This document shows positions 21,493 to 58,371 of a stretch of DNA of 59,847 nt, piece after piece (the stretch's first letter is position 1; the number at the start of each line of letters is the position of its first letter). Under the pieces are notes generated by a model that was not told the DNA's origin, searched no databases, and worked only from the letters and a program-made list of their open reading frames with translations. The stretch is from Gemmatimonadota bacterium (GTDB taxonomy: Bacteria; Gemmatimonadota; Gemmatimonadetes; Longimicrobiales; Gaopeijiaceae): contig JARRLD010000022.1 in assembly GCA_037387345.1 (NCBI GenBank), positions 1-59,847 on the forward strand, given 5' to 3'. A program made the translations under genes and the position numbers.

Positions 21493-21526
21493 CGGGTCTC
21501 CTCAACTCGTCGTGAATGATGTGAAG

Positions 21527-33867: not shown

Positions 33868-34172
33868 GAATCCCTCGACGCGAGGTGGGCGGTTACCCTA
33901 CCCGCGGAAGTCTCGATCCCCTGGTCCCCGCCGGAAGCCGCGCCCTTCGATTCCCGCGGGATCGGCACCGGATCGAATCCGTACCCGCCCCAGGGGTGGC
34001 AGCGGAGGATCCGCCTCGTCGCAAGCCATCCGCCCTTCCACGCGCCGTGGCGCTCGATGGCTTGGAGGGCATACCTGGAGCACGTGGGCGTATACCGGCA
34101 GGACGGCGGTGTCCATGGGGAGATCGCCAGCTGATAGAAGCGAATCAGGCCGATCAGGATACGTCGGGGCAA
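33864..34172 (-). CDS. yidD: membrane protein insertion efficiency factor YidD
   Basis: [68 protein letters not shown] start. Overlaps the rnpA end by 19 nt and the yidC start by 4 nt. Confidence 0.85.
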
Positions 34173-34504
34173 AGCTCCTCCGTGGCGTTCCTGAGCGCGT
34201 CGCTCAGGTCCTCGAAGCCGGCCTCGTACGCCTCCCTTCGTGCTCGGACCAGGAGATCGACCGACGCCCCACGCTCGTGCAGGGCCGGCAGCACGTGCCT
34301 TCGCGCGACTTCCCGGAGCCTGCGCTTGAGGAGATTCCGCTCCACGATCCTCCGTCCATGCTTGGGCACGATCAGTCCCAGCCGGGAAAAGCCCGCGGGG
34401 GAAGGTGCGAAGAAGACCTCCACGAGGATCGTCCTCTTCCGCTTCCCCCGCTCCAGGAGCGCTCGGATGTCCTTCCTGCTCCGGATGCGAAAGAGCCGGG
34501 GCAA
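34154..34504 (-). CDS. rnpA: ribonuclease P protein component
   Basis: (L/M)[67 protein letters not shown] is the RnpA pattern, located just downstream of rpmH. There is no in-frame ATG; TTG at 34504 is proposed. The track ORF extension to 34879 runs through rpmH and is rejected. Confidence 0.72.
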
Positions 34505-34533
34505 CCCTTCGCGGCGCTCCGGGTGACGCGGGT

Positions 34534-34683
34534 CTACTTGCCGCCCACCTTCACTACGAGCCGCGCGCGACCTTTCTTCCGTCGACGCGACAGCGTGGCG
34601 CGGCCGCCCCGCGTCTTCATCCTGGCGCGGAACCCGTGCTTGTTGACCCGCTTGCGGTTGCGGGGCCTGTACGTCGGCTTCAT
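34534..34683 (-). CDS. rpmH: 50S ribosomal protein L34
   Basis: Below the ORF-track size cut-off. Hand translation of the minus strand gives [49 protein letters not shown] (49 aa), the L34 consensus, in the canonical position between dnaA and rnpA. Confidence 0.95.
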
Positions 34684-34732
34684 CTGGGCAAGCCCGATCC
34701 ATGGGAGTCATTCGCTTCGAAACGAGCTTGAA

Positions 34733-34762
34733 AAGATAGTCCGTTCGCGGGGAAAGCGTCAA
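34733..34762 (-). promoter_or_regulatory. putative sigma-70-type promoter of rpmH-rnpA-yidD-yidC
   Basis: On the minus strand: TTGACG (34762-34757), 18-nt spacer, TATCTT (34738-34733), about 50 nt upstream of the rpmH ATG. Confidence 0.35.
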
Positions 34763-34780
34763 CGCCCCTCCGTTCCACCA

Positions 34781-34849
34781 TGTGGAAAAACCGCCAAATG
34801 CCTGGGTGTGCCAGCCTCGATTGACTTTTCCACACCCCCTTCCTAGCTT
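34781..34849 (+). promoter_or_regulatory. DnaA boxes plus putative dnaA promoter
   Basis: tgtggaaaa (34781-34789) and ttttccaca (34826-34834) each match the TTATCCACA/TGTGGATAA box at 8 of 9 positions and lie in opposite orientation. TTGACT (34821-34826), 17 nt, TAGCTT (34844-34849) overlaps the second box, which is consistent with autoregulation. Confidence 0.45.
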
Positions 34850-34988
34850 CGGCGCCCCCACCTCTACCGGTGGGTACATTCACGTCCCCTCCGCCCTTGC
34901 TCGCCGTCAGGATGCCGGTTCAGAACGAGCCCCGTTCCGTCCATCCCTCCCGCCCTCCGCTGGCCCCTTCGACGCCTCCCGGGGACCC

Positions 34989-36383
34989 GTGGAACTGACT
35001 GCGCACGAGCTGTGGACGAAGATCTGCGAAGCGGCGCGCCCGTCCGTCCCCGAGCAGGGCTACCGCACGTGGCTCTCCGGAATCCAGGCCGTGGGTCTCT
35101 CCGACAAGGAGCTGCTCCTGGAGGCACCGAGCCCCTTCCACGTGGAGTGGGTCGAGGACAAGTTCGGAACCCTCCTCGCGGCAACGGCCGAGCGGATTCT
35201 GGGGCGGCCACTCTCCCTGTCCCTGTCGTGCTCCTCGACGCCAATCTCCCTCCAGGTACCGATGCTGGATCTGGGTCCCGCGCAGGGGGGCGTCACCCTC
35301 CCGTCGGTTGCACCACCCCTCTCCGAGGCCGTGACGCAGGCCCGCCTCAACGAGCGATATACCTTCGAACGGTTCGTCGTAGGCACCAACAACCAGCTCG
35401 CCGTGGCCGCGTCCCGGGCTGTCGCCGAGAAGCCCGCCAGGATGTACAACCCGCTCTTTCTCTATGGCGGCGTCGGGCTCGGCAAGACCCACCTGATGCA
35501 CGCGATCGGGCACCACCTCCTCCAGGTGGATCCCCGCCGGCACGTGGCCTACGCGTCTTCGGAGCAATTCACCAACGAGCTGGTGGGGTCGATCCAGGCG
35601 GGAACCATGTCCGCCTTCCGGCACCGGTATCGCGAGATGGACCTCCTCCTGGTGGACGACATCCACTTCCTGGAGGGAAAGGAACGCACGCAGGAGGAGT
35701 TCTTCCATACCTTCAACGCGCTGTACGACGCCCAACGACAGATCATCCTCACCAGCGATCGGCCCCCGAAGGATCTCCCTGGGCTGGAGGCTCGCCTGGT
35801 GTCGAGATTCGAGTGGGGTCTGGTGGTGGACATCAGGGCACCCGACTACGAGACGCGCATGGCCATCCTCCGGAAGAAGGCCGAGGACGACGGTCTCCTT
35901 CTGGACGACGAAGTCATCGAGTTCATCGCCCACTCCTGTACCTCCTCGGTGCGGGAGCTGGAGGGGGCGGTCATCAAGCTTCTGGCGTATTCCTCCCTGA
36001 CTCATCAGGAGATCACGCTGCATCTGGCACGGACGGCCCTCTCCGGAGTCCTCGGCAGATCCACGCCTCAAGACCGACCCATCTGGTCTCCCGAGCGCAT
36101 TCAGGCCATGGTCGCGAGCCGGTGGCGCGTGAAACCCGAAGCCCTGGCGTCCAAGCGACGCACCAGGGACGTCACGGTGCCTCGTCAGGTGGCCATGTAT
36201 CTCATCAAGGAGACTCTCGGGACGTCCCTGGTTCGGATCGGAGAGATCTTCGGGGGCCGAGATCATTCGACCGTGATCCACTCCATCAAGAAGGTGGAGC
36301 AGCAAATGGCCGTCGATCCCGAGTTCCGCAGACGCGTGGCGGACGCCCGCGAAGAGGTGCGTGGCCCCAGGGCTGGGGAGTGA
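34989..36383 (+). CDS. dnaA: chromosomal replication initiator protein DnaA
   Basis: Domain I (ELWTKICEAARPSVPEQGYRTWL), AAA+ domain (NPLFLYGGVGLGKTHLMHAIG...LLVDDIHFL...ILTSDRPP) and domain IV (VPRQVAMYLIKETLGTSLVRIGEIFGGRDHSTVIHSIKKV). I prefer GTG 34989. The track ATG 34782 would put the DnaA boxes and promoter inside the CDS. Confidence 0.9.
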   Translation: MELTAHELWTKICEAARPSVPEQGYRTWLSGIQAVGLSDKELLLEAPSPFHVEWVEDKFGTLLAATAERILGRPLSLSLSCSSTPISLQVPMLDLGPAQGGVTLPSVAPPLSEAVTQARLNERYTFERFVVGTNNQLAVAASRAVAEKPARMYNPLFLYGGVGLGKTHLMHAIGHHLLQVDPRRHVAYASSEQFTNELVGSIQAGTMSAFRHRYREMDLLLVDDIHFLEGKERTQEEFFHTFNALYDAQRQIILTSDRPPKDLPGLEARLVSRFEWGLVVDIRAPDYETRMAILRKKAEDDGLLLDDEVIEFIAHSCTSSVRELEGAVIKLLAYSSLTHQEITLHLARTALSGVLGRSTPQDRPIWSPERIQAMVASRWRVKPEALASKRRTRDVTVPRQVAMYLIKETLGTSLVRIGEIFGGRDHSTVIHSIKKVEQQMAVDPEFRRRVADAREEVRGPRAGE

Positions 36384-36666: not shown

Positions 36667-37779
36667 ATGAACTTCACGATCACCAGGCAGAACCTCCACA
36701 GCGGGCTGGCGGCGGTGTCGGCCAGCATCCCGTCGAAGACGACCCTGCCGGTGCTTTCCAACATCCTCTTCGAGGTCCGCGAGAATTCCGTCTGGATGAG
36801 CGGCACGGATCTCGATGTGGCCGTCCGCGTTCGGGTGCCCGCGGACGTGAAGGAAGAGGGTAGTCTCACGGCGCCGGGCAAGAAGCTCCAGGAGATCACG
36901 CGGGAGCTTCCGGATGAGCCGGTGGACGTGTCGACGCGAGGCGACCAGATCGAGCTCAGATGTGGGCGTAGCAACTTCAAGTTCAACGGGCTTCCCGCCG
37001 AGGAGTTTCCCTCACTCCCGTCCATCGACTTCGAGCAGGGCTGGAGAGTCAAGGGGAAGGATCTGCACGGGCTGATTCATCACACCGCCTTTGCCGTGTC
37101 TACGGAGGAGAGCCGACCCATCCTGAACGGCGTGTTGTGGGAGCTACGAGACGGGTCCATGACGATGGTGGCCACCAACGGGCACCGTCTCGCTCGGATG
37201 GGGATTCCGGCGGATTCCGCCAGCGTGCCTTCCGCAGACTTCATCGTGCCGCCGGCGGCCCTGCAGCACGTGCAGAGGCTGTTCAAAGGGGAGGAGGAGC
37301 TCAGCGTGGCACGCGAAGGAAACCATCTCGGGTTCAGCGCGGAGGCCACCGAGGTCTTCACACGGCTCATCGATGGGAGCTATCCCAACTACGACCAGGT
37401 CATTCCCAAGGACAATGACCGCATTGCGGCGGTGCACAAGAAGGCTCTGGAGTCTGCCGTGCGCCGCATGGCTGTGGTGGCCTCGGACCAGACGCACCGC
37501 ATTCGCCTCAAGTTCGAGAGCGGCCGCGTCCACCTGAACGTGCTCACCCCGGACCTGGGGGAAGGACATGACGAGCTGGAGGTGGGATACGAAGGAGAGG
37601 AGATGGAGATTGGCTTCAACGCCAATTACCTTCTTGAGGTCCTGCGGTACATGCCCACGGACGAGGTGAGGGTCACCTTCAAGGCTCCGGAGCGCGCCGC
37701 GACCATCGAGCCGATTCCCGAGGGGGATGAAGCGATGGATTATCTCTGCTTGGTGATGCCTTTGAGGCTGCTCGACTAG
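36667..37779 (+). CDS. dnaN: DNA polymerase III beta sliding clamp
   Basis: MNFTITRQNLHSGLAAVSASIPSKTTLPVLSNILFE...ILNGVLWE...ATNGHRLA...DGSYPNYDQVIP...MPLRL. Confidence 0.95.
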   Translation: MNFTITRQNLHSGLAAVSASIPSKTTLPVLSNILFEVRENSVWMSGTDLDVAVRVRVPADVKEEGSLTAPGKKLQEITRELPDEPVDVSTRGDQIELRCGRSNFKFNGLPAEEFPSLPSIDFEQGWRVKGKDLHGLIHHTAFAVSTEESRPILNGVLWELRDGSMTMVATNGHRLARMGIPADSASVPSADFIVPPAALQHVQRLFKGEEELSVAREGNHLGFSAEATEVFTRLIDGSYPNYDQVIPKDNDRIAAVHKKALESAVRRMAVVASDQTHRIRLKFESGRVHLNVLTPDLGEGHDELEVGYEGEEMEIGFNANYLLEVLRYMPTDEVRVTFKAPERAATIEPIPEGDEAMDYLCLVMPLRLLD

Positions 37780-37985
37780 AGGTCTCCTTCACGGAGCGGA
37801 GGGGGGTTTTTTGGGGCGGTAGGTCCAACGAGGCCGACCGCCCCGTGGTCGTTCGGATGGCCCGTGGCGGGCCCTCGGGTCGCCTTACGACGATGACCGC
37901 ACGAACGCAGGGGGGCGCGGTGGGTAAGAATTGCCGATGCCGAGTCCCAACATCCGTGGAGGAGCGTCGTCCGCCTCGGTCACTC

Positions 37986-38893
37986 ATGCGTTTACCTCAG
38001 CGAAACCTTCCGACCGCCGGTAGCCTGTGCCGGCGGCGCCTGTTGAGGAGCTACCTTGCGCTCCTGCTCGCCACCGGATCGCTGTCGGCCTGTGGCGACA
38101 ATGGCACCGCCCCGCCAGGCACATTGCGCTTCGGCCAGCTCGGCCAGATCCGTGCCGAGCTCATGGTGCCCCTTCGGGGTGCTTCCACCCTTGCAGCCGG
38201 CCAGCTCCGTCAGGTCCTCACCTGGGAGTCGGGGGGCTCCTGGACCCTGGAGGAGTCCATCTCGTATCGGGGGCTCCTGGGCGACGACGAGCTCCGGCAC
38301 AATCCGGGGAATGCGGCGCTGTTTGCCGCCGACTACGCTTCCCTGATCACCCAGTTGAACGAGGTCCAGGGACTGGAGCTCTTCATCGACGAGCTGCCCC
38401 GGGATACAGACCCGCAGTGTGGACAGACCGGCACGCGTCTCTCCTTCTCCATCCGGGACGATATTCGCGACGAGGAGTACACCTGGATCCGATGCGTCTC
38501 CGGGTCGTTGGGGAACCTTACACCGGTGGGCGCCGGTCCCGACCCGTCCGCTTCCCGGGTTGCCCTGGCCACGATGCTGGCCCGGGACCGTACCCTGGGC
38601 GAAGACTTCGTCTCGGCCTATGCCGGCAGCGTGCCGGTCGGTACCCTCGACCGGGGCGAAGATACGCCTACGCGTCTCAGCGCGCCGGTGGCCTTCCTGG
38701 ACGAGAGGAGGTTCGGCGGGTCCTCCAGGTATATGAAGGGACCCTCACGGAGATCTTCGAGCGGGTCCCTGGCGACTTCTGTTCCCCGGCTGCGCAGAGC
38801 CACGTGCCATTCCACATCATCGTCGCACCCCGGACGCCCGCTCCCATCCGCTTTGCGGATATACGGGTCGAGCGTGTACCCTGCGGGGTATGA
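37986..38893 (+). pseudogene. lipoprotein of unknown function, with a -1 reading-frame break near 38705 (or a sequencing error)
   Basis: ATG 37986: MRLPQRNLPTAGSLCRRRLLRSYLALLLATGSLSACGDNG (lipobox LSAC). Protein-like sequence runs in the frame of 37986 up to ...SAPVAFLDE. That frame then becomes Arg/Ser-rich junk overlapping the kinase gene. The -1 frame reads EEVRRVLQVYEGTLTEIFERVPGDFCSPAAQSHVPFHIIVAPRTPAPIRFADIRVERVPCGV* with higher GC3 and stops 3 nt before the kinase ATG. Confidence 0.5.
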
Positions 38894-38896
38894 CGG

Positions 38897-40345
38897 ATGT
38901 CCATCCGCGCGCTGTTCACTACCGCCATCGTGGCCTTTGCCATCATGGTGTCTGCTTCCGGGGGCTATCTGGCGTGGCGCGAAGCCAGGAGGGCGGTGGA
39001 GGCCGAGTTGGATCAGCGAGCGTCCTGGGTGGCCGGAGCCGCTGCAGAGACGGGACTCCAGGCGACGATCCTGGAGAGTCTTCAGCCGGGTTTCGAGGAC
39101 CTGCGAGCCTGGACCAGCAACCACGCGCGCCTCGAGCGTCTGCTCAACTACGTGTCCGAGGCCTACGTGGTGGCCCAGGACAACACGGTGCTCGTAAGCT
39201 CCTTTCCGGCTGACTCCTTCCCCATCGGCACACCACTGCGGTTCCTTGAGCCCTTCGACCAGGAGTTGGATTCCGCACGCGCCTGGGGGAGCGCGACGAC
39301 GCGGTCCTTCACCGGCACGGACAACCGACAGTACAAGTGGGGCTTCGCCAAGCTCGAGCAGTCCCCGTTGGTTCTCGCCGTGCTCATGCCAGCCGACTAT
39401 CTGTCCCCGCTGGACACGCTCCGTGAGAACCTGCTCATCGGCTCCCTGGTTGCGGCAGTCCTGGCGACGCTCCTCGCCGCGCTGCTCGCCGCGGGCATCA
39501 TCCGTCCTCTCGAACGACTCAGCCGGGTGGCCCTGCGAATCCAACGGGGGCACATGGACGAACCGGTAGCCATCGAGCGAGGAGTGGAGCTCGGGCGTCT
39601 CTCCCGCGCCATGGAGCGAATGCGGCAGGGCGTACAGGAACGGGACGAGCAGCTGCGGCTGATGTTGGCGCAGGTGGCCCACGAGATCCGCAATCCCCTC
39701 GGAGGATTGGAGCTGTTCGCATCGGCCGCCGCGGATGCCCACGACGGAGACGAGCGGGTTCGGTTGATGGCCAGGATTCGGGAGGAGATCATCGCCCTCA
39801 ACCGTATCATCGACGACTTCCTCACCTTCGCCCGTCCCCTGGCACCTGCCCGGGAGCTCGGCGATCTGAGGGTGCCTCTCAGCGAGGCAGCGGAGCTGGT
39901 GCGTGCCCAGATGAAGCAGGGCGGAGGGGAGCTTCGGCTCGTGCTGCCGGAGGAGCCGCTGCTCGCGTCGGTGGATCCCCAGCACGCGAAGCGCGCCGTG
40001 CTCAACCTCCTGCGCAACGCGGCGCAGGTCGCGAAGAACGTGGAGCTGACCTCCTTCGTCCGGGGTGGCGAGATCGTGGTGGCGGTGGCGGACGACGGTC
40101 CGGGAGTCCCCGCCGGTCTCCGGGATCGAATCTTCGATCCGTTCGTGACCGACAAGGAGCAGGGTGCCGGCCTGGGCCTGGCCATCGTCCGCAAGATCGC
40201 CGAAGCTCACCACGGACGTGTGGAGCTCGTCCGACGGAAGGAAACAAATGGTGGGAGGGGATCGGAGTTCCGCATATATTTCCGGAGTCTGGAAGATCCT
40301 CCACCCGCGTCCAGGCTTCCGGCGGTTGCCGAGGCAGCCAGATAG
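38897..40345 (+). CDS. sensor histidine kinase (2 TM, periplasmic domain, HAMP, HisKA, HATPase_c)
   Basis: TM1 ALFTTAIVAFAIMVSASGGYLAW, TM2 LLIGSLVAAVLATLLAALLAAGII, HAMP RPLERLSRVALRIQRGH, H-box LAQVAHEIRNPLGG, and G-boxes DDGPGVP...GAGLGLAIV. Confidence 0.88.
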   Translation: MSIRALFTTAIVAFAIMVSASGGYLAWREARRAVEAELDQRASWVAGAAAETGLQATILESLQPGFEDLRAWTSNHARLERLLNYVSEAYVVAQDNTVLVSSFPADSFPIGTPLRFLEPFDQELDSARAWGSATTRSFTGTDNRQYKWGFAKLEQSPLVLAVLMPADYLSPLDTLRENLLIGSLVAAVLATLLAALLAAGIIRPLERLSRVALRIQRGHMDEPVAIERGVELGRLSRAMERMRQGVQERDEQLRLMLAQVAHEIRNPLGGLELFASAAADAHDGDERVRLMARIREEIIALNRIIDDFLTFARPLAPARELGDLRVPLSEAAELVRAQMKQGGGELRLVLPEEPLLASVDPQHAKRAVLNLLRNAAQVAKNVELTSFVRGGEIVVAVADDGPGVPAGLRDRIFDPFVTDKEQGAGLGLAIVRKIAEAHHGRVELVRRKETNGGRGSEFRIYFRSLEDPPPASRLPAVAEAAR

Positions 40346-40354
40346 CGCGCGCCC

Positions 40355-41764
40355 ATGGCCGAGATCCTGATCATCGAAGACCACGCCGCCATGCGGGAGG
40401 GGCTGGAGCTGCTCCTGAGGCGCAGAGGTCACCGTACGCGGGTCGCTGACAGCGGCAAGCGGGGCCTGGAGTTGCTGGCCGAGGAGGTGGCTGATCTGGT
40501 GATCACGGATCTCAAGATGGCCCGCATGGACGGAATCGAGGTCCTCCGGCGCGTGAAACGGCACACACCCGACACCGAAGTCATGGTCATCACGGCCCAC
40601 GGCACCATCGAGAAGGTCGTGGAAGCCATGAAGCTGGGTGCGGCAGACTACATCACGAAGCCGTTCTCCTCGGAAGAGTTCGCGGTCAAGGTCGATCGCC
40701 TGGTGGCGGAGCACTATGAGCGAGCCCGTCTCCGTCGGGAGAACGTGGCCCTCAAGGTGGAGAACACCTACCTGAGGGAGGAGACCCAGGCCCGGTACGG
40801 TGAGATCGTGGGGGAGTCTCCGCCCATGACCCAGGTGTTCCGTTGGGTCGACCGGATCGCACGAAGTGACTCGACGGTCATGATCTACGGTGAATCCGGG
40901 ACGGGGAAGGAGCTGGTGGCGAGGGCCATTCATGCCGGATCACCGCGCTGTGACGGACCCTTTGTGCGTGTGAACTGCGGTGCGCTTACCGAGAGTCTTC
41001 TGGACTCGGAGCTCTTCGGCCACGAGAAGGGTGCGTTCACCGGCGCGGAGCGACGGCGTCGGGGGCGCTTCGAGCTCGCGGACGGAGGTACGTTGTTCCT
41101 CGACGAGATCGCCACGGTTCCCCATACGACACAGGTGCGCCTGCTGCGTGTCCTTCAGGAGCGGGAGCTCGAGAGGGTCGGCGGTGAGGAGACCCTTCCG
41201 GTGGACGTGCGCATCATTGCCGCCACGAATGCTACGGCCGACCGGCTTCTGTCAGACGGCACGTTCAGGGAGGACCTCTTCTATCGCCTCCACGTTGTGC
41301 CGATCACGCTGCCTCCGCTTCGCGACAGGAAGGAAGACATCCCCCTGCTGGTCAACCACTTCATCGACAAGCTGCACGCGAGGACGGCATCTCCCGCGCT
41401 CACGGCTACGCCCGGGACCTTGAAGCGACTGGCAGCGTACGGCTGGCCCGGCAATGTCCGGGAGCTCGAAAACGTGATCGAGCGTGCCCTCGTCATGGCG
41501 GATGGAGAAGAGCTGACAGAGGACTACCTCCCGCCCCTCGGCGGAGCGGTCCCCTCGCACAGCGCCTTCGGCGACGGAGTCCCGCGCAGAGATCTTCCCG
41601 AGGGAGGATTGGACCTCAATCAGGCGGTGGAAGGGATCGAGGAGCGGCTTCTGCGACAGGCGCTGGAGCAGGCTAGCGGCGTCAAGGCCGAAGCCGCTCG
41701 GCTTCTCGGCCTGAAGCCGAGCGCGCTCTATTACAAGCTCGAGAAGTACGGAATCGAGGCATGA
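40355..41764 (+). CDS. sigma-54-dependent response regulator (NtrC family: REC, AAA+, Fis-type HTH)
   Basis: REC (DLVITDLKMARMDG), Walker A GESGTGKELVARAIH, the sigma-54 contact loop GHEKGAFTGA, and the C-terminal HTH AARLLGLKPSALYYKLEKYGI. Confidence 0.92.
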   Translation: MAEILIIEDHAAMREGLELLLRRRGHRTRVADSGKRGLELLAEEVADLVITDLKMARMDGIEVLRRVKRHTPDTEVMVITAHGTIEKVVEAMKLGAADYITKPFSSEEFAVKVDRLVAEHYERARLRRENVALKVENTYLREETQARYGEIVGESPPMTQVFRWVDRIARSDSTVMIYGESGTGKELVARAIHAGSPRCDGPFVRVNCGALTESLLDSELFGHEKGAFTGAERRRRGRFELADGGTLFLDEIATVPHTTQVRLLRVLQERELERVGGEETLPVDVRIIAATNATADRLLSDGTFREDLFYRLHVVPITLPPLRDRKEDIPLLVNHFIDKLHARTASPALTATPGTLKRLAAYGWPGNVRELENVIERALVMADGEELTEDYLPPLGGAVPSHSAFGDGVPRRDLPEGGLDLNQAVEGIEERLLRQALEQASGVKAEAARLLGLKPSALYYKLEKYGIEA

Positions 41765-42687
41765 AGCTTTCCTGCCGGGTATGGAGCGGATGGCTGCGAT
41801 CGCGGCGCCCCCTCCTCGTGGTGCTGGCGTCGCTCGCGCCTGTGGGAGCCCGTGGTCAGTCGCTGGAGGAGCAGGTCATCCAGCGACGCCTCGAGTTCCA
41901 GCAAGCGGAGCTGGAATATGAAGCAGCCCGCGCGGCACTCAGCGTCGTGGATCGCCAGTTCTCCGCGGCGCTCAACACGGTTCGGGAGGCCCACCGCACC
42001 GGCGACGACCAGGCCCTGGAGTCAGCCTACGCCCAGGCCCAGGCCCGCTCGGGGCCACTCGCGGCTCAGGAGCGCAGGGTCGACGAGGCCCGCCAAAGAC
42101 TCGCCGAGGCCCGACAGGCGTTCGTCGAGGTGCTCAACCTCAGCCTCCAGCAGCTCGCCGTCGCGATGTCGGAGGCGCCCACGGAGCTGCGACTGACGGA
42201 GATCGACGCCATCTATCGAGACCGTCGGGCGGAGCTGTCCCGGCTCGAGGACGGGGGTGAGGAGCATGCCTTCCGCATCGACGTCGCCATCCTCCCCGAC
42301 ATCAACTTCGATCCGAGGGACGGCCCCGAGGAGCTCGAGACCAAGGCACAGCTGGTGGAGGCGTACGCCGCGCTCGTGGATACGGTCATCTCCGACATCG
42401 ACCGGCGCGTGGAGCTGCTCAACGAACAGGCCCGCAGCGACCGGCAGCGGGAGGATCTGCTGCGGGCTGTCGGTCGCTTCGACGATACGAACCTGCCTGT
42501 CGGTGTCACCACGGGTCCGCCTGGGAGCGATGCGGCCGCGGACAGCACCGGGGTGGGCAATCGCCCCCTGACCCTCGAGGAGCGGATCGAGGAGCTCATG
42601 TCGTACAGGGCGCAGCTGGTGGGCTACCGGGACCAGGTGCTCATCAAGGCGAGAACGTTCCGGTCTCGGTTGAGGTCGATCGTATGA
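41761..42687 (+). CDS. secreted coiled-coil protein of unknown function
   Basis: ATGA overlap with the regulator stop. A signal-like N-terminus (RRPLLVVLASLAPVGARGQS) is followed by long heptad-like Ala/Glu/Arg/Gln-rich helices. No family recognised. Confidence 0.6.
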   Translation: MKLSCRVWSGWLRSRRPLLVVLASLAPVGARGQSLEEQVIQRRLEFQQAELEYEAARAALSVVDRQFSAALNTVREAHRTGDDQALESAYAQAQARSGPLAAQERRVDEARQRLAEARQAFVEVLNLSLQQLAVAMSEAPTELRLTEIDAIYRDRRAELSRLEDGGEEHAFRIDVAILPDINFDPRDGPEELETKAQLVEAYAALVDTVISDIDRRVELLNEQARSDRQREDLLRAVGRFDDTNLPVGVTTGPPGSDAAADSTGVGNRPLTLEERIEELMSYRAQLVGYRDQVLIKARTFRSRLRSIV

Positions 42688-43820
42688 GGCGGCGGATCAG
42701 CTACGCACGCGCTCTGGTTTTCACGTCGGCGATGTTGGCCGTGAGCGGATCAGCTGCGCCGGCCGAAAGCCAGGTGCGGTTCCGTGACCTGGTGGTCACT
42801 CTTGGGGGGTCCGCGGAATCCTACTCGGGCAACTTTTCCGCGGTGACGCTGCCGATCGTGGACAGCACCGAAGACGCTACGGCGGCGGTGGGGGAGGTCG
42901 CCGTCAGCGGCTCGCTGATTCTGCTCGGCTCGCGGACGCGGAGCTTCGACGTCTCCTTCGACGGAGGGATGCGCCAGGCCGCGGCCTTCGGGTTCGAGGA
43001 GCTCGACTACGCTCCGAGAGAATGGGTGGGCTCGGTGTCGCCGCGGTTCATCCAGGGGCTGGGAAGCTGGGGGTCCCTGCGCGTGCGGGGGCTTTACCGA
43101 GGGAGATCCGTCCAGGACAGGCCGCCCATGCCCCTGTTCCTACAGCCGGGCTATTCGATGCTGCAGGGTGTCGTCGGCCTGATTACCCGGTCGTTCGACG
43201 GCCTGAGCTTCGACGCACGCGTGGATGTCGAGGAAACGGATTACGGGGCCCTGGCGCTCGTTCCGCAGCTGGACCTCCTGGATCGAAGGTCGTCCGGAGT
43301 CGAGGTGGGGCTGCGGTGGGGGGCGACATCGACGATCCGGGTCCACGGGGGTCTGCGCTGGACGGAGTACAGCAATCAGGGAAGCTTCGATCCGGACGAT
43401 CCCTTCCGGCGGGACCGCACCGCGCGGGTGGGCATGGAGTGGACACATTCCGGGCACGTCTTTGCGCAGGTGGGGCTCGACGGGGCAATGAATCGGTCGA
43501 ATTCCGACAGACCCGAGTACGATGCAGTCAGCTTCCGGGCGCTCGTCACCACGCCCCTGCCTGCGGGCTTCTCGCTGAATGCCTATGCGGTGCTCACGGA
43601 CAAGGGCTATCTGCACGAGACGGATTTCGCCCGGCTGGTTCCCGGAGAGGAGGCCGATAACGCGTCCATCGCGTACCTGCAGGTCGGGCGGTCGCTCGCA
43701 TCCAACCTGGACGGCGCCGTGCGGCTGGGATGGACGCGCGCGGAGACCGACTTCGGGCAAGCGTACTATGAGCGCTTCGGTCTCTCGGTGCACGCCAACT
43801 ATCGGCCGCTGACGCGCTGA
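42684..43820 (+). CDS. putative outer-membrane beta-barrel protein of unknown function
   Basis: ATGA overlap with the previous gene. Signal peptide ARALVFTSAMLAVSGSAAPAESQ, then repeated alternating hydrophobic/polar strands with aromatic girdle residues (e.g. VRLGWTRAETDFGQAYYERFGLSVHANY). No family recognised. Confidence 0.55.
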   Translation: MRRRISYARALVFTSAMLAVSGSAAPAESQVRFRDLVVTLGGSAESYSGNFSAVTLPIVDSTEDATAAVGEVAVSGSLILLGSRTRSFDVSFDGGMRQAAAFGFEELDYAPREWVGSVSPRFIQGLGSWGSLRVRGLYRGRSVQDRPPMPLFLQPGYSMLQGVVGLITRSFDGLSFDARVDVEETDYGALALVPQLDLLDRRSSGVEVGLRWGATSTIRVHGGLRWTEYSNQGSFDPDDPFRRDRTARVGMEWTHSGHVFAQVGLDGAMNRSNSDRPEYDAVSFRALVTTPLPAGFSLNAYAVLTDKGYLHETDFARLVPGEEADNASIAYLQVGRSLASNLDGAVRLGWTRAETDFGQAYYERFGLSVHANYRPLTR

Positions 43821-43830
43821 GGGCCGGGGG

Positions 43831-44577
43831 TCAGCCGCTCCCGGCGGGCCCTGCCCAGAAGGCCCACGCGATCCAGGGCCCGTCGTGGGACAGGGACACG
43901 TCGGCCGGGGCCTCCGAGCCGTCCAAGAGGACCATCGGCGGCTTCCGTTCGCCGAGCCCGGGATGTCTCACGATCTCGAGGCGCGCATCGTCCACGTCCA
44001 TCGCATGGGCCATTGCAGACCGGGCATCGATGCGGACCGCGACGGACACGGATGAGCTTGCCGCCTCGGCCTCCCGCGGGGACAGCAGATCCCGCAGCCT
44101 GTCTGCAGTCTCCTGTCCGTAGTGAGCGATCTCCGCCAGGCGACGCCTTCCTGCCACGATCTCATAGAGGAGGTCGATCCGACCCCCCAATATCGCCACG
44201 GCGTGGAGCACCCCGAACTCGTGCCTCACCTCGACCGGGGTCTCCACATTCTCACAGGAGACGACGCCTCTTCGGACGGTTGACTCGTCTCCCAACCGTG
44301 CCATGCCGCGGCAGGTCCAGGCCACGCGGAACGCCGCGTGGCCGAATACGGGAGGGCGCTTCCGCATCTTGGCCACGACCTTGTAGGCAGCCTCCTTCGC
44401 CGCCCACAGGCACCAGAGCTCGAGGTCGGGATCCGTTCTCGCGCTGAGCGCCGGACGCTCCGACGCGTCGAGGATCCGCGAGACGAACCGTTCGTCCCCG
44501 GCCTTGCCACGTACCCGGGGATTCGAGAGATCCACCACGTCGTTGCCCACAAGCACCGGCGGCGCCATCGTCGACAT
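43831..44577 (-). CDS. 4-prime-phosphopantetheinyl transferase family protein (Sfp-type)
   Basis: VGNDVVDLS...FVSRILDASE...WAAKEAAYK...VSLSHDGPWIAWAF. Start uncertain (ATG 44577 or 44568; track 44631). Confidence 0.72.
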   Translation of the reverse strand: MSTMAPPVLVGNDVVDLSNPRVRGKAGDERFVSRILDASERPALSARTDPDLELWCLWAAKEAAYKVVAKMRKRPPVFGHAAFRVAWTCRGMARLGDESTVRRGVVSCENVETPVEVRHEFGVLHAVAILGGRIDLLYEIVAGRRRLAEIAHYGQETADRLRDLLSPREAEAASSSVSVAVRIDARSAMAHAMDVDDARLEIVRHPGLGERKPPMVLLDGSEAPADVSLSHDGPWIAWAFWAGPAGSG

Positions 44578-44593
44578 CCTCCAGGTCGCTATG

Positions 44594-45922
44594 TCATGAT
44601 CCCCGGTACACGACTCGCCATATCCGACCACGGGAGGAATCGGATATGAACAGGGATCCGTCGGGGCCGGTGGATAGCCCTACGGGTCGCGCTACAGACG
44701 CGTTGTCACCCTCGCGGCGGAATCCGTCCGCGAAGGTCTCCCAGGTCGTGTCCGGTCCGTTCGCCGAGGCCGGAACGAAGACGACGCGGTAGCCGTCCTG
44801 GGGTCTTGGGGCCCGGTTCCAGGAACCGTGAAAGGCGATGAACGCGCCCCCGCGATAGGCAGCGGGGAACTGGGTGCCCGAGTAGAACTCCAGGTCATTC
44901 GGTGCCCAGTGAGCGGGGAAGCCGATGATGGGCATGTCCTTGTCGGCGCAGCGACCGACCTGGGCGCCGTCCCCGCCGTATTCCGGGGCCAGGACCTTGG
45001 CGCCGGTCTCGGGATCGTGGTAGCAGTACGGCCATCCGAAGTCGGATCCCTCAACAATCCGGACGAATTCCTCGGAAGGCTTTTCGGCGTTCTGATCCAC
45101 CGTGAAGAGGTCCGGGAACATGCCGTGCAGCTGGTCGCGTCCGTGCATGACACCGTATAGCACGTTGGTTCCCGGGTGGACCTGAAGCGCCACCACGTTT
45201 CTCAGGCCCGTCGCGAAGCGCGTGCCGTCGGCCTGGGTCTGACCCGTGCGGTCGGCGTCAAACCTCCAGATTCCCGCCCGATCTTCGAGTTGACGGCAGG
45301 GGTCCTGTCCGGGCGACCCCGCCGTGCGGCTCTCCACCATGCAGGCGTTCGACGGCGCCCCGATGTTCACGTACAGGCTTCCGTCCGACCCCAGGGCGAT
45401 GCTCTTGGCTGTGTGGTTCCGCGTGTCGGGCAGGCCGGAGACGATGGTGTCCGGCGGGCCGGAAGGCACCATGGCGCCTTCGTCGAGGGGATACCGCAAG
45501 ACCGCGTCGTCGGGAGCGTGATAGACGAACCCCTCGGCGATGAGCACGTCGTTCCCCCCGTTCTCGCCCCAGGTCTGCGAGCGGTCGGCAACCCCGTCGC
45601 CGTCGGTGTCCCGCAGCACGGTGACGCCCCCGGTCTGGATCGGGGCGTCGCGAGACGTCCTCCGGTTCCGTCGGGCGACGAAGACGTCACCGTTGGCGGC
45701 GATCTCCACGTGCCGCGTACCGGGGAGGCTGTCTACGAACAGGATGGCGCAGAATCCGTCGGGGAGCGTAATGCCTCCGTTGTCCGCAGCACACTGGCTG
45801 GCAAGCGCCGACGGTGTTTCCTCGCTGGGGGCCGCGGAGGATTCGTCCGGGCCCGATGAGCATGCCGCCGCGGCGCACGCGGCCAGGGCGGTCAGGAATC
45901 CGGGAACTGGGCGGATGGTCAT
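44594..45922 (-). CDS. PQQ-dependent sugar (glucose/sorbosone) dehydrogenase family lipoprotein
   Basis: ATG 45922 with GGAG upstream. Lipobox LTALAAC, then beta-propeller blocks ...GLRNVVAL..HPGTNVLYGVMHGRD...DFGWPYCY.... Confidence 0.82.
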   Translation of the reverse strand: MTIRPVPGFLTALAACAAAACSSGPDESSAAPSEETPSALASQCAADNGGITLPDGFCAILFVDSLPGTRHVEIAANGDVFVARRNRRTSRDAPIQTGGVTVLRDTDGDGVADRSQTWGENGGNDVLIAEGFVYHAPDDAVLRYPLDEGAMVPSGPPDTIVSGLPDTRNHTAKSIALGSDGSLYVNIGAPSNACMVESRTAGSPGQDPCRQLEDRAGIWRFDADRTGQTQADGTRFATGLRNVVALQVHPGTNVLYGVMHGRDQLHGMFPDLFTVDQNAEKPSEEFVRIVEGSDFGWPYCYHDPETGAKVLAPEYGGDGAQVGRCADKDMPIIGFPAHWAPNDLEFYSGTQFPAAYRGGAFIAFHGSWNRAPRPQDGYRVVFVPASANGPDTTWETFADGFRREGDNASVARPVGLSTGPDGSLFISDSSRGRIWRVVYRGS

Positions 45923-45985
45923 GGGGATCACTCCGATGGAATCGCTTGGGAGGAGTCGGACCATGGCAGATTCAGAAGTGGTCCG

Positions 45986-46441
45986 TCAGGGGTCAAGGGT
46001 GGCGACGTCGCCGGTTCCACCGAACCCCAGGGCGGCCTGGACCTCGGCGGGCACCCGCATGGGCCGACCGGACGGATCGACCCACACGGCGGTGACGAGC
46101 GCCCGGGCGATACCGACCTCCGGCTCGTCTGCCCGAGCGATATCCTGTTCGATCAGCAGGGTGGACCGTTTCCGGGAACGGGCCCAGGTGCGGATGCGCA
46201 GACGGTCGCCCAGCCGGGCCTGATGCAGATAGTCGATCTCGAGGCGAACCACGTACACCCCCCAGCCGCGGCGGATCATCTCCTCGTACGGGAACCCGCC
46301 CTGCCTCAACGCATCGTAGCGGGCGTACTCCAGATAGTTGAGGAAGATGGAGTGGTTGACGTGGTCGAAGGCGTCCAGCTCGTAGCTGCGGACCTCGACG
46401 GTGGTTTCGCTGACACGGACGTCGACGACAGGCTCCGGCAT
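45986..46441 (-). CDS. acyl-CoA thioesterase, YbgC/4HBT hotdog family
   Basis: ATG 46441: MPEPVVDVRVSETTVEVRSYELDAFDHVNHSIFLNYLEYARYDALRQ. The track start is TTG at 46477. Confidence 0.85.
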   Translation of the reverse strand: MPEPVVDVRVSETTVEVRSYELDAFDHVNHSIFLNYLEYARYDALRQGGFPYEEMIRRGWGVYVVRLEIDYLHQARLGDRLRIRTWARSRKRSTLLIEQDIARADEPEVGIARALVTAVWVDPSGRPMRVPAEVQAALGFGGTGDVATLDP

Positions 46442-46514
46442 GGAGTGAATAGACGGCGCCCTGCGCCTGGTGAGCAAGGCCGACGCCGCCGGAGCGCCGA
46501 CCGTATTCCGGGGC

Positions 46515-49500
46515 TCAGGGCTCGAGGTCCGGCCGATCCTCCATCAGGCCCTGGTCCCGGACCAGGTCGCCCAGCTGGATTCGTGAGCTCACATCCAGCT
46601 TCCGGAAGATGCTCGAGAGGTGGGTGCTCACCGTTCGAGGGGAGATTCCCATCTCCTTGCCGACGGCCTTGTTCGACAGACGGTGCGCCACGAGGCGGGC
46701 GACCTTGAGCTCCTTGGGCGTGAGGCCGAGCATCCCCTTCCCCCGGGGCGGAGGCCGTACGTCGAGCTCCCTCAGCTGCTTGCGGGTCTTCTCCAGCTCG
46801 ATCTCCGCGCCGAGCTTGGCGAAAACGTCGTGGATGTGGAGGAGCTCGGCCACGGCCTCCTCTTTCCTGTCGATGTCACGGAGGCGAGCGGCCAGCTGGC
46901 GACGGATGCGCACGGCGTAGGGGATCATGGGGATCTCCTCCAGCTTCTCCGCGGCCTGCATCATGCCCTGCGCGCCGCCTTCCGGATCCCCCCGCTTCCA
47001 CCGGACCAGCGCGTCGCAGGCGTCGGCCCAGGCCATGCCCAGCTTGTGATCCATCTTCTCGGCGTAGTCCCTGAGGCGGCGCCCCGCCGCTTCCGCCTCG
47101 TCGATCCGCTCGGCCCACAGCCAGGCCTCGGCGAGGATGGGGAGGAGCCGGTGCACCACGAGGAGATGGTACTCGGTGCCCTCGGCGATCTCGAGGGCCT
47201 GTCGGGCGGCGTCCGCTGCCTCCTCGTACTTGCCGACGGCCACCAGGTAGTGGGCCAGAGCGGTGAGAGCCGGGATGGTCCGGTAGACGGGACCCGGGCC
47301 CTCGGCATCGTCCTTCCTGGCGATCTCACACGCCTCGTCCACCAGGAGCTTCGCCCGGTCGAACTCGGCCCGTCCCAGGTAGAACTGGGAGGTAGCGGCC
47401 AGGAGCAGGGGCAGCAGGCTCTTCTGGTTGAGGTTGCGGGCCAGGGCGACGCTCTGCTCGCCCAGGGCGATGCCCTCGTCCCAATTGCCGGCGGCGTACG
47501 CGTGCTCGATGGACATCGTGGCGGTCCAGAGCCTCAGCACGGGGGAGCGGAGGCGATCCGCGAGAATCATGAGCTCGTCGAGCCCGTCTGCCATGCGCTG
47601 CGCGTCACCCCTCATCCCCCAGAGGACGGCCAGACCCCACCGGGCCCAGAACTCGGTCCGCAGGTCGGTGGCCTGTTGCGACAGCTCGATGGCCTTGGAG
47701 GCGTGCTCCTCGGCCGTGGCGGGAGGGCCGGTCCACACGTGGAGCAACGCCAGGGACCGCCGGACCCGCCCCAACAGCCTGGCATCGCCCAGCATCTCGG
47801 CCTCGGGCAGCGTACCGGTGACCTCCTCCAGGGCCTCCTTCGCCCGCCCCATCTCCTGGAGGCAGTGGAAGCGTGCGAGGCGAAGCCGGACCCGGGTGGC
47901 CCGGTCCCCCGCTTCCTCGGCGGACTCGAGGCCACGGTCCAGGATCTGGAAGGCCTCGTCCCGGCGTCCACACCAGAAGGAGGTCAGGCCGTGCATCCGA
48001 CACAGGCTGGCGTGGGCGCCCGTGCCGGGCTCGGCGCTCGCCACCGCCTGCTCCGAGAGCTTCCTGGCGGTCTCGTATTCTCCGAGACGCAGGTAGCACC
48101 GTGCCAGGTCGGCAGTGAGGGCTCTCCGTATCCCTTCGTAGCCATCCCCGGGGGATCCGGTGACGCGCTCGAGAGCAGCCTGCAGGTACCCGACGGCCTC
48201 CCGGTCGGCGTGACGTTCCAGGGCCGCGCGACCCGCCGCGGTCAGATACGTCACGGCTTTCACGGAGAGGCGGGCCGCGTCGGTCCGGGCGAAGTGGTAC
48301 GCCAGCTGGTCGGCATGCTGGACGGCCGCCTCGCCCCAGTACGCCTCCATGGCCTCGGCCACGGCTCCATGGAGCAGCCGGCTGCGCTGTAGCCCCAGCT
48401 CCCGGTAGAGCACCTCCCGCATCACCGGATACCGGTAGTCGTACAGCACCCTGCCCCCCTCCACCTGCTCCACGAGGACGCCGTTCGCCACGAGCTCCTC
48501 CAGGGCAGCGAGAAGCTCCGGCTCCTCGAGGCCGCTGATGGATACCAGAAGCGGATAGGCCGCCCTCGAGCCCATCACCGTAACCAGTTCGGCCACGGCC
48601 TGAACGTCACTGCTGAATCGTGCCACCCGCGTGACCACGGCGTCACGGACGGAGCCGGGCAAGGCGAAGTCGCGGGCGTCCCAGCCCACCCAGGTGCCCT
48701 TGTGGCTGGACAGGGCACCGGTCGCGACCAGGGATTTGAGGGTCTCGCCGACGAAGAACGGGTTGCCGCGGGTCCACCCGAACAGCATGGCCGAGAACTC
48801 GCGAACCATGTCCGATGCCACGGTAAAGACCCGACACACCAGCTCGGTCACCTGTTCCCGGGTCAGCGCATCGAGGCTGATGGCGTGGACGACCCCGAGG
48901 GAGATGAGCGATCGCTCGGCCCTCACCAGTCGGGGGCTTCGATCCCGCTCGACGACGTCGTAGGTGCACAGGAGGAGCACCGGGTGCTCGGTGAGCTGCC
49001 GGGCCAGGAAATGGATGAGCTCGAGCGACGACGCGTCGGCCCAATGGAGGTCATCGAGGCAGACCAGGAGGGGTGAGCGGGAGGCGTAGCTCTTCAGGAA
49101 CTCGGCGAAGGTCCAGTAGAGGCGCGTCCGGAACTCCTCGGGATTGGCTCCCTCCGGGTCCTGGGCCGGATCGCGGTGGGGCCCCAGAGCAGGGAAGAGG
49201 TACTCCAGGTCGCGTTCCCCTCCACGGCTGAGGACCGCCAGCGTGTCGGCGTCCATCGCGTCCAACAGCGGCTGGAACGCGTCGGAGAACAGGGCGTAGG
49301 GGACGCCCTGCTCCATCGGATAGGCCCGGCCCCGGGCCACGGTCCAGCCCCGGCGTTCGGCGCGGGCGGCCAGCTCCCTGGCCAGGCGCGTCTTGCCCGA
49401 GCCCCGCTCGCCCGAGATCAGGGCAAGGGACACGGGATGCCCGGGGTGGAGCAGCCCCTCCAGCTCCGCCAGCTCCGCCGTCCTGCCGACGAGAGGATAG

Positions 49501-49559
49501 GGGCCTTGGAGAGGGTCCACCGGACCAGAGGCTGCAGGCTTGCGTGTGGCCGACATCAT
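46515..49559 (-). CDS. large LuxR-family regulator: AAA/STAND ATPase, TPR-like repeats, C-terminal LuxR HTH
   Basis: ATG 49559. LVGRTAELAELEGLL...LISGERGSGKTRLA (P-loop) ...LVCLDDLHWAD (Walker B), about 500 aa of helical repeats, then LTPKELKVARLVAHRLSNKAVGKEMGISPRTVSTHLSSIFRKLDV. Confidence 0.85.
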   Translation of the reverse strand: MMSATRKPAASGPVDPLQGPYPLVGRTAELAELEGLLHPGHPVSLALISGERGSGKTRLARELAARAERRGWTVARGRAYPMEQGVPYALFSDAFQPLLDAMDADTLAVLSRGGERDLEYLFPALGPHRDPAQDPEGANPEEFRTRLYWTFAEFLKSYASRSPLLVCLDDLHWADASSLELIHFLARQLTEHPVLLLCTYDVVERDRSPRLVRAERSLISLGVVHAISLDALTREQVTELVCRVFTVASDMVREFSAMLFGWTRGNPFFVGETLKSLVATGALSSHKGTWVGWDARDFALPGSVRDAVVTRVARFSSDVQAVAELVTVMGSRAAYPLLVSISGLEEPELLAALEELVANGVLVEQVEGGRVLYDYRYPVMREVLYRELGLQRSRLLHGAVAEAMEAYWGEAAVQHADQLAYHFARTDAARLSVKAVTYLTAAGRAALERHADREAVGYLQAALERVTGSPGDGYEGIRRALTADLARCYLRLGEYETARKLSEQAVASAEPGTGAHASLCRMHGLTSFWCGRRDEAFQILDRGLESAEEAGDRATRVRLRLARFHCLQEMGRAKEALEEVTGTLPEAEMLGDARLLGRVRRSLALLHVWTGPPATAEEHASKAIELSQQATDLRTEFWARWGLAVLWGMRGDAQRMADGLDELMILADRLRSPVLRLWTATMSIEHAYAAGNWDEGIALGEQSVALARNLNQKSLLPLLLAATSQFYLGRAEFDRAKLLVDEACEIARKDDAEGPGPVYRTIPALTALAHYLVAVGKYEEAADAARQALEIAEGTEYHLLVVHRLLPILAEAWLWAERIDEAEAAGRRLRDYAEKMDHKLGMAWADACDALVRWKRGDPEGGAQGMMQAAEKLEEIPMIPYAVRIRRQLAARLRDIDRKEEAVAELLHIHDVFAKLGAEIELEKTRKQLRELDVRPPPRGKGMLGLTPKELKVARLVAHRLSNKAVGKEMGISPRTVSTHLSSIFRKLDVSSRIQLGDLVRDQGLMEDRPDLEP

Positions 49560-49904
49560 CACCGTCCGGGTGATGGGAGTGCTCCGGTGAGATCCCCAAG
49601 CTATGGTTCCAATGGACCTTACGACAGGATGTACGGAAGCGGCATCCCGCCTGGAGCCCTCCTTCGGGGAGCGGCGCGGCACCCTTGGGAGGTCCATGTC
49701 CCGGGAGGGGGCGTCGGGGCCGATACTCATCAAGCGTCTCCTGAGATGGCGATCGGAGGTATCGACATCCAAGATCTGCCGACCTCGACGGCCGGGCCCT
49801 ACGGCAGAGTACGTACCCGACCCCCGGCAGTGACGTAGACTGGCGGGCCAGGCCAGGCGACCGCGCGGAGAGATCGAGGTCCTACGTGGTGGTCCGACTG
49901 ATAG

Positions 49905-57558: not shown

Positions 57559-57627
57559 CCCGTCGTCACGTCGGGGCCATCCAAAGCAGATCGCCCCTGT
57601 GTTTCCTACCCCCCCAGGAGGAGTGTC

Positions 57628-58371
57628 ATGTCCACGCAGAGACGCTTGGCTCTATTGATCGCGGTGTTTCTCTCTGGCCCGATGGCCTGCAGCGAAGAAC
57701 CCGTTGCTCCGAAGGCCGTGCTCGACGAACCGGGCGGGGTGACGGTGCCTGGCCACGACCTGGAGCTCACCCTGCCCCTTCCGGAACGAGCCGCGAACGC
57801 AGGACCCTCCGCCCGAGCCGATGAGCCTATGCCGGCGGATCTTCCCGAGGAGTACGACCTGGAGGCGGCCCTGATCAGCAAGGCCACCAGCAGTCCCTAC
57901 GTCGCCTACGGACGGGCCGGGAACCAGGCGAAGACCACCTTCACGGGCAACCGCATCAAGGTCGACGTCTACACCACGGTGACCTTCCTCGCCGAGCCCC
58001 TCGTCACGGAATTCCTGCAGACCACCCAGGACAGCTACTTCTGGCCCCAGACCGAAAAGCGGCACGACGCGTTCTCGCAGATCGCGATCGAAGGCTCCTG
58101 CGGACACACCGCCTCGGGTCGCGCCCAGCACGTCGTGTGGATCGACTACGGACCCTACGAGTGGGGGGAGACCGAGCGGCCGAGCAACGGGAAGCCCTAT
58201 TCGCAGCGGGACTGTGAGACCGACGACGCTCCTGTGGACGATCCGCGGACCGGGAGTGGAGGAGACGAGCCTCCTCCCGGGGAGATCTATACCTGCTGGT
58301 ACCGTTACACCTACGACATCTACACAGGCGAGGTCCTCGAATTCGAGCTCCTGTACTGCGAGACCACCTGA
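57628..58371 (+). CDS. hypothetical lipoprotein with four additional conserved-looking cysteines
   Basis: AGGAGGAG RBS. MSTQRRLALLIAVFLSGPMAC lipobox, acidic/Pro linker, then a globular part with Cys in EGSCGHT, QRDCETD, IYTCWYRY and LLYCETT. No family recognised. Confidence 0.55.
   Translation: MSTQRRLALLIAVFLSGPMACSEEPVAPKAVLDEPGGVTVPGHDLELTLPLPERAANAGPSARADEPMPADLPEEYDLEAALISKATSSPYVAYGRAGNQAKTTFTGNRIKVDVYTTVTFLAEPLVTEFLQTTQDSYFWPQTEKRHDAFSQIAIEGSCGHTASGRAQHVVWIDYGPYEWGETERPSNGKPYSQRDCETDDAPVDDPRTGSGGDEPPPGEIYTCWYRYTYDIYTGEVLEFELLYCETT

Follow-up and report, generated by a model that had tools for sequence, protein, structure and literature searches.

To our knowledge, almost all known envelope two-component systems that rely on an accessory protein (QseG, NlpE, RcsF) come from Proteobacteria. 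In the Rcs envelope-stress system (RcsF with OmpA/C/F barrels and IgaA), an outer-membrane lipoprotein and a beta-barrel together report the state of the outer membrane across the periplasm to an inner-membrane kinase. In the QseEGF system, an outer-membrane lipoprotein, QseG, binds and activates the periplasmic domain of the kinase, and the sigma-54 targets glmY and rpoE are envelope-related (PMC6075780, PMC12691602). Here we analyze a five-gene module at positions 37986-43820 of a 59,847-nt stretch of DNA from a Gemmatimonadota bacterium (GenBank assembly GCA_037387345.1, contig JARRLD010000022.1, positions 1 to 59,847, forward strand), which we refer to as the window. The module encodes a lipoprotein, a sensor histidine kinase, an NtrC-family sigma-54 activator, an exported coiled-coil protein and a predicted outer-membrane beta-barrel.

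The nearest precedent is QseE(GlrK)-QseG-QseF(GlrR) of the Enterobacteriaceae, which like the module combines a periplasm-sensing kinase, a sigma-54-dependent NtrC-type regulator and a dedicated lipoprotein. However, the gene order is lipoprotein-kinase-activator in the module and kinase-lipoprotein-activator in QseEGF, and no sequence or fold similarity between QseG and the module lipoprotein was detected. The module regulator scores 336 bits with the GlrR model against a cut-off of 763, the likeness is one of function only, and QseEGF lacks the two extra components of the module, the coiled-coil protein and the 16-strand barrel. The Rcs system embodies the same concept, a lipoprotein and a barrel that report, without homology; its barrels are general porins encoded elsewhere, its kinase is part of a hybrid-kinase phosphorelay, its regulator is sigma-70-dependent and it has no coiled coil. 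ZraP-ZraS-ZraR likewise joins an envelope kinase, HAMP-less or with HAMP, and a sigma-54 activator to an exported all-helical accessory protein. ZraP, however, is a protein of about 140 aa of the CpxP/Spy family, encoded divergently from a sigma-54 promoter, whereas the module coiled-coil protein has 308 aa and is translationally coupled to the regulator gene; the ZraS and ZraR equivalog scores of the module proteins are also below the curated cut-offs. Because equivalog scores fall short, the accessory proteins are non-homologous, the gene order differs and two components have no counterpart, the module appears akin to the accessory-protein envelope two-component systems (QseEGF, Rcs, NlpE-Cpx, ZraPSR) while being a member of none.

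We show that the five genes are a lineage-specific, origin-proximal operon of the Gemmatimonadota, mostly of genomes labelled Longimicrobiales. The reading that we tentatively prefer, and to which we give slightly less than an even chance, is that this operon encodes an envelope two-component system with three dedicated accessory proteins that act as sensors or relays in the envelope.

Results

Gene order and conservation

An earlier reading of the window from its letters alone, hereafter the original prediction, described five tightly packed co-directional genes. Open reading frames (ORFs) are found at the positions it gave. The lipoprotein gene starts at 37986 and its stop codon, TGA, lies at 38891-38893; the kinase gene (38897-40345) begins 3 nt past this stop, and is followed by the activator (40355-41764), coiled-coil (41761-42687) and barrel (42684-43820) genes, all on the plus strand. 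Both ATGA overlaps, between activator and coiled coil and between coiled coil and barrel, can be read directly in the sequence.

Relatives of the module were collected by scanning one genome per species, which gave 164 stretches with relatives, of which the best 80 loci were taken. In total, 90 loci (80 of them from species-representative genomes) were compared by tblastn with the window proteins; all belong to Gemmatimonadota and most are labelled Longimicrobiales. The order lipoprotein-kinase-activator-coiled coil-barrel and the orientation of the genes are identical in every sufficiently long locus, down to a barrel identity of 45%. This shared arrangement is far beyond chance. The 4-nt start/stop overlap between activator and coiled coil is present in 60 of 77 loci and that between coiled coil and barrel in 63 of 80, with a 1-nt overlap in 13 further loci, and median gaps at the remaining two junctions are 8-10 nt. 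As judged from these junctions, the five genes form a predicted single operon with translational coupling, with no space for an internal promoter before the envelope genes. The flanks, on the other hand, are variable: pyrE is present or absent, ABC-transporter genes are inserted downstream and GSDH or LuxR genes are lost, while the five genes never split or reorder. The original prediction had proposed one functional unit; gene order proved to be conserved in relatives, and the invariant order, the conserved overlaps and a fusion paralogue of the coiled-coil protein and the barrel, described below, strongly support that proposal.

The window is the replication-origin region of the chromosome, with the minimum of the cumulative GC skew at 34-36 kb. 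This minimum (34000-36000) falls between rnpA/rpmH and dnaA and therefore puts the whole module on the leading strand, no more than about 10 kb from the presumed origin of replication. The genes parA, gidA, yidC, yidD and rnpA are on the minus strand and are followed on the plus strand by dnaA (34782-36383) and dnaN (36667-37779). A terminator-like hairpin just 3′ of the dnaN stop (37783-37815, plus strand), with an 8-pair stem followed by GTTTTTTGGG as its T-run, separates dnaN from the module and is conserved in three related loci (L005, L009, L011).

Upstream of the module, dnaA-dnaN is found in all loci but one (L082). The claim that the module was inserted directly after dnaN, however, applies to the window lineage only. 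In about 60% of the related loci a minus-strand pyrE intervenes, identified by TIGR00336 with 130.7 bits against a cut-off of 106.8. The window has no pyrE at this place, nor did tblastn detect one anywhere else in its 60 kb. The module is thus better described as an order-wide syntenic block; pyrE is missing from the window lineage and the adjacency to dnaN is derived. Where pyrE is present, as at 4612-5145 of L001 and 4636-5199 of L002 (minus strand in both), its start codon overlaps a palindrome-like ATGATCCAT. The conserved 'MIH' N-terminus of many lipoprotein gene calls is the reverse complement of this pyrE start and was rejected as a protein feature. We also considered the dnaN-lipoprotein spacer of the window as a decayed 5′ end of pyrE and rejected this: the BLAST comparison was not significant, and the only shared feature is the two-box element discussed below.

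A natural fusion of the coiled-coil protein and the barrel

Among the distant matches of the barrel are proteins of about 600 aa, thirteen of which were aligned as family A4. Compared by hhalign, A4 residues 17-224 match the coiled-coil profile (97.5%, E 5.6e-12, 207 columns), in an alignment that begins at the A-Q of the signal peptide and pairs RLFDETGMPP with RFDDxRxPV. The barrel profile aligns with A4 residues 374-616 (98.9%, E 2.8e-17). The order of the domains, coiled coil and then barrel, is the same as the gene order in the module. We therefore regard the two module proteins as a pair, since they are fused in a paralogous family, and they probably work as one physical unit, with the coiled-coil protein as the likely partner of the barrel on the periplasmic side.

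The fused genes occur in the same phylum and are solitary, with neither kinase nor activator nearby in three contexts (L091 10001-11860, L092 10001-11848 and L094 10001-11785). The motif GCPxxxCP is invariant in their linker. A convergent Thioredoxin_8 (TlpA-like) gene follows the A4 gene in each of the three contexts examined, a neighbor that hints at a redox-linked role for the A4 paralogue.

Three envelope protein families

Export signals had been assigned to all three non-signalling proteins, and no family had been recognized for any of them. Both statements stand. The lipobox LSAC of the lipoprotein and the signal peptides of the coiled-coil protein and the barrel are conserved family-wide. 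Pfam and NCBIfam gave no family for the window proteins, the intact orthologues, 50 lipoprotein members, 35 coiled-coil members or the distant relatives of the barrel, and profile and structure searches matched no characterized family.

The barrel protein has 378 aa and a signal peptide. Its AlphaFold2 model, built from a 50-sequence alignment, has a pLDDT (predicted local distance difference test) of 85.7, 16 strands and no plug. Together with the signal peptide and a conserved C-terminal NYRP motif, this model makes the protein a predicted outer-membrane beta-barrel. Foldseek against PDB returned 364 barrel matches at E<=1e-3, none of them specific. The best template-modelling scores (TM-scores) were to 14- and 16-strand channels (BcsC 0.48, CymA 0.48, and the 16-strand PgaA 0.40 with TMt 0.48), while the top Foldseek E-values were to the OccK/OprD substrate-specific channels, with a TM-score of only about 0.4. 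Assignment to OprD/OccK, BcsC, PgaA, CymA or another named family was rejected, given TM-scores of 0.48 or less and no Pfam or NCBIfam match, and a sequence-profile search of PDB returned nothing for the barrel or for the lipoprotein. More than 745 homologues of the barrel were found, all unannotated, from Gemmatimonadota and mostly labelled Longimicrobiales; the lipoprotein has more than 391. The barrel profile matched only 103 of 1.84 billion cluster representatives, and the family is therefore small and confined. A second, shorter stand-alone barrel family (347 aa; P0314, P0319 and similar) is distantly related to the module barrel (E 1e-8 to 1e-4) and has no Pfam family.

Conservation of the barrel across the group is comparable to that of dnaA. 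Its long loops are its most conserved segments, and those opposite the termini reach mean identities of 0.92 (L3), 0.93 (L6) and 0.85 (L7). Surface-exposed loops usually show the reverse, low conservation. The pattern suggests, on the basis of the model, that these loops either fold inward, into the lumen, or bind a partner that is conserved, and a conserved partner or ligand accounts for it more readily than a surface antigen would.

The lipoprotein is a bacterial lipoprotein as predicted from its signal peptide and lipobox ([LVI][ASTVI][GAS]C). The lipobox cysteine (C36) is invariant across 50 homologues, as are four more cysteines. The AlphaFold model has two domains (pLDDT 88.6). For the N-terminal domain, the best Foldseek match in PDB is Magoh-like but weak (TMt 0.52, E 2e-3), and LolA/LolB/RseB came up with low probability; we accepted none of these as relatives. 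For the C-terminal domain, a candidate match to PrcB_C (PF14343) fell short of significance, with 2 of 50 members matching at a best E of 0.081, and searches of PDB found no relative.

Members of the coiled-coil family have 300-330 aa (308 in the window) and a conserved signal peptide that ends in A-Q. Their long helices are interspersed with the motifs ARxSGD (HRTGD in the window), DPRDGP, RFDDxRxPV, DST and PLTLEE, and a PDB profile search found only generic coiled coils. Two known families were considered and set aside. CpxP/Spy/ZraP (PF13801/PF07813) proteins have about 140-170 aa, against 300-330 aa here, and only 1 of 35 members matches PF13801, with a chance-level E of 0.044. PspA/IM30 was considered since PspA pairs with the sigma-54 activator PspF. 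The coiled-coil family was set apart from it by its conserved signal peptide; PspA_IM30 is not among the listed Pfam results, and no profile-profile comparison was made.

The kinase and the sigma-54 activator

The signalling genes are as originally described. The kinase matches the Pfam families HAMP, HisKA and HATPase_c (PF00672, PF00512, PF02518) above their cut-offs and has a conserved H-box, VAHEIRNPL. Hydrophobic segments at residues 1-27 and 173-196, assigned by eye from the translation and not by a transmembrane predictor, flank a region of about 145 aa. The protein is thus predicted to be a transmembrane HAMP kinase, in which a first transmembrane segment, a periplasmic input domain and a second transmembrane segment precede a HAMP relay and the catalytic core. 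In PDB, the closest structure to that core is ZraS (9jfj, E 8.5e-25).

The activator is of NtrC type and matches Response_reg (PF00072, 2.8e-31), Sigma54_activat (PF00158, 9.4e-70), AAA_lid_14 (PF25601) and HTH_8 (PF02954), all above cut-offs, corresponding to a receiver, an AAA+ domain and a Fis-type helix-turn-helix. Its translation shows D52, a Walker A motif (GESGTGKE) and the GAFTGA loop, and it is therefore a complete sigma-54 activator. Against the NCBIfam equivalog cut-offs it scores 469.7 for AtoC (714), 427.3 for NtrC (558.6), 399.9 for ZraR (760) and 336.3 for GlrR (763). All four scores are below the curated cut-offs, and the protein is thus a member of the NtrC family with no named orthologue. 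Among the NCBIfam models, kinase and regulator score highest with AtoS and AtoC, though far below the cut-offs (132 vs 646 and 470 vs 714).

Promoters

In general, sigma-54 regulons have to do with the exterior of the cell (PMC3162934). The original prediction found no canonical sigma-54 promoter near the module, and -24/-12 scans of the window and its relatives agree. In the window, TGGCAC-N5-TTGCW with up to 2 mismatches gave 10 matches, against 16 in shuffled sequence. A scored GG-N10-GC scan of the 90 loci returned no site that repeats at an orthologous position, and in the regions 5′ of the lipoprotein gene, sigma-54 scores in about 60 orthologous loci were under the coding-sequence control. 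The sigma-54-looking TGGGTAAGAATTGCC at 37921 was rejected for its wrong spacing. With no conserved sigma-54 promoter in cis, the targets of the regulator should lie elsewhere and the operon should be read by another sigma factor. The original prediction left open whether the envelope proteins are the sensed apparatus or the regulated output; the latter is weakened by this result and by the coupling to the activator gene.

In 34 of 61 distinct loci we find a two-box element, CGAACG-N15-GGGTA(A)GAAT, positioned relative to the lipobox cysteine codon at -180 to -283 nt (in most, -180 to -233), compared with a background frequency of 0.011 per 420 nt. Part of this conservation is due to coding, because in loci with pyrE the element sits inside the pyrE coding sequence. 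It nevertheless persists in six loci that lack pyrE, in most of them with a spacer that has diverged, and is therefore a reasonable promoter candidate. In the window it occurs as CGAACG-N15-GGGTAAGAAT at 37902-37931 (plus strand), about 55 nt 5′ of the ATG. We infer a candidate non-sigma-54 promoter with a TAnAAT -10 box and a GAAC-containing upstream box.

The lipoprotein gene of the window is broken

One claim of the original prediction failed. The lipoprotein gene (37986-38893) had been described as a single reading frame, but its 908 nt are not a multiple of 3, and start and stop are in different frames: the ATG at 37986 opens a frame that runs to 39197, while the stop at 38893 belongs to another. 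Orthologous lipoproteins have 319-343 aa and contain a segment of about 40 residues (…SWESFW…VDF…EMV…G…EAG…) that is missing from the window copy. An intact lipoprotein of 343 aa is encoded on two metagenome contigs, L005 and L006, which come from different samples and share 99.3-99.7% identity with the window across 8-12 kb. Aligned with them by MAFFT and BLASTN, the window is shorter by exactly 124 nt at 38706/38707 (5168-5290 of L005), flanked by a repeat no longer than 1-2 nt. The deletion takes out about 41 codons, among them those for invariant residues of the C-terminal domain, and puts the rest of the gene out of frame. The 5′ part of the gene (37986-38706) thus encodes the signal peptide, the lipobox, the N-terminal domain and the start of the C-terminal domain, and the 3′ part (38707-38893) encodes the conserved C-terminus (...EVRRVLQV...PGDFCSP...VPCG) in the other frame.

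The frameshifted gene is either a pseudogene or an assembly error. Because of it the unit in the window is probably incomplete, and the system there is either impaired or mis-assembled. Automatic annotation would, as a result of the deletion, yield a spurious ORF of 403 aa (37986-39197) that overlaps the kinase gene by 300 nt.

Other features of the window

A convergent block lies downstream of the module on the minus strand (43831-49772). It encodes an Sfp-type 4′-phosphopantetheinyl transferase, a PQQ/GSDH-like beta-propeller, a YbgC/FadM thioesterase and a 1085-aa AAA_16-TPR-LuxR regulator; it is syntenic with the module in many relatives and interrupted or partly missing in others. Three long ORFs on the plus strand (21344-23749, 54291-55307 and 57559-58371) have a coding-like GC content at third codon positions of 0.81-0.87 and no Pfam match; the one of 801 aa has no NCBIfam match either. 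No Rfam family and no tRNA were found in the window.

Discussion

We propose the following mechanism for an envelope two-component system with dedicated accessory proteins. The operon would be transcribed from a non-sigma-54 promoter, for which 37902-37931 is the candidate. The 16-strand barrel would be embedded in the outer membrane and extended into the periplasm by the coiled-coil protein, and barrel, coiled-coil protein and lipoprotein would be accessory components made in fixed proportion with the kinase. Through these proteins, a condition in the outer membrane or the periplasm would be signalled to the kinase, whose periplasmic domain they would modulate. The kinase would phosphorylate the regulator at Asp52, and the phosphorylated regulator would then turn on sigma-54 promoters elsewhere in the genome.

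Several points weigh against this proposal. Contact between the accessory proteins and the kinase is suggested by analogy and is our proposal only, and the localization and topology of the proteins are predictions; the span from outer membrane through periplasm to inner membrane, which formed part of the original prediction, likewise follows from predicted signals and AlphaFold models only. The solitary A4 fusion shows that a coiled-coil/barrel pair can function independently of signalling. The disruption of the lipoprotein gene means that the lipoprotein may be dispensable, at least in the population of the window. Finally, scans in and around the operon found no target promoter. A stronger form of the proposal goes further: a previously undescribed trans-envelope machine, core and origin-linked in the group, in which the barrel with its coiled-coil stalk and the lipoprotein physically couple the state of the outer membrane to the HAMP kinase and the sigma-54 activator. 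We consider this form speculative and rather unlikely.

The main rival explanation is that lipoprotein, coiled-coil protein and barrel constitute a structural or transport apparatus, such as an export or uptake channel with a periplasmic stalk or an outer-membrane tether, which the two-component system only monitors or regulates; the envelope proteins themselves would then not be sensors. The solitary fused paralogue favors this explanation, standing as it does without signalling genes. The best TM-scores of the barrel are to channels (BcsC and CymA 0.48, PgaA 0.40). In both BcsC and PgaA a helical periplasmic domain precedes the barrel, a layout like that of the fused A4 paralogue. The barrel is moreover conserved like a housekeeping gene, and its conserved long loops could make a constriction or a binding site. 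However, the periplasmic part of PgaA/BcsC consists of TPR repeats whereas that of the module is a coiled coil, TM-scores of up to 0.48 are generic for barrels, and no sequence relationship to these proteins or to any other channel family was found. Nor is any synthase (including polysaccharide synthases), transporter or catabolic gene conserved nearby, and this explanation does not account for why the envelope genes are so strictly co-inherited with the regulator gene and translationally coupled to it. On this evidence a purely structural or transport role is possible but doubtful.

A more specific alternative is nutrient sensing and uptake: a substrate-specific porin (the barrel) and a substrate-binding lipoprotein would be joined by an AtoSC/DctBD-like sigma-54 two-component system that senses this substrate and induces catabolic genes elsewhere. 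Kinase and regulator do have their best NCBIfam scores with AtoS and AtoC, the top Foldseek E-values of the barrel are to OccK/OprD and the conserved loops could form a specificity filter. Yet the AtoS and AtoC scores are far below the cut-offs (132 vs 646; 470 vs 714), and OccK channels have 18 strands and a TM-score of only about 0.4. Porins do not feature a dedicated coiled-coil protein as partner in the periplasm, nor one fused to the barrel; no transporter or catabolic genes are linked; and a niche-specific uptake system would not usually keep an invariant place beside the origin throughout the group. We therefore judge this alternative very unlikely. Least probable is that the five genes are only neighbors in a highly syntenic origin region with no joint function: the surroundings are indeed also syntenic in many loci (yidC-rnpA-dnaA-dnaN upstream; phosphopantetheinyl transferase, GSDH, thioesterase and LuxR downstream), but these flanks vary while the five genes keep together and in order, the 4-nt overlaps are conserved and the fusion directly links two of the genes.

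Conclusions

Five genes near the replication origin are co-inherited in a largely uncultured, environmentally abundant group of bacteria. Three of them represent families without known relatives, and one encodes a barrel that is unusually conserved for an outer-membrane protein. Although the copy in the window is damaged, the module is a well-defined target, given how well it is conserved, the fusion of two of its components and the confidence of the models. If the three envelope proteins are indeed accessory sensors of the two-component system, this would define three new protein families with confident structural models and would represent a new architecture for passing outer-membrane information to a sigma-54 regulon.

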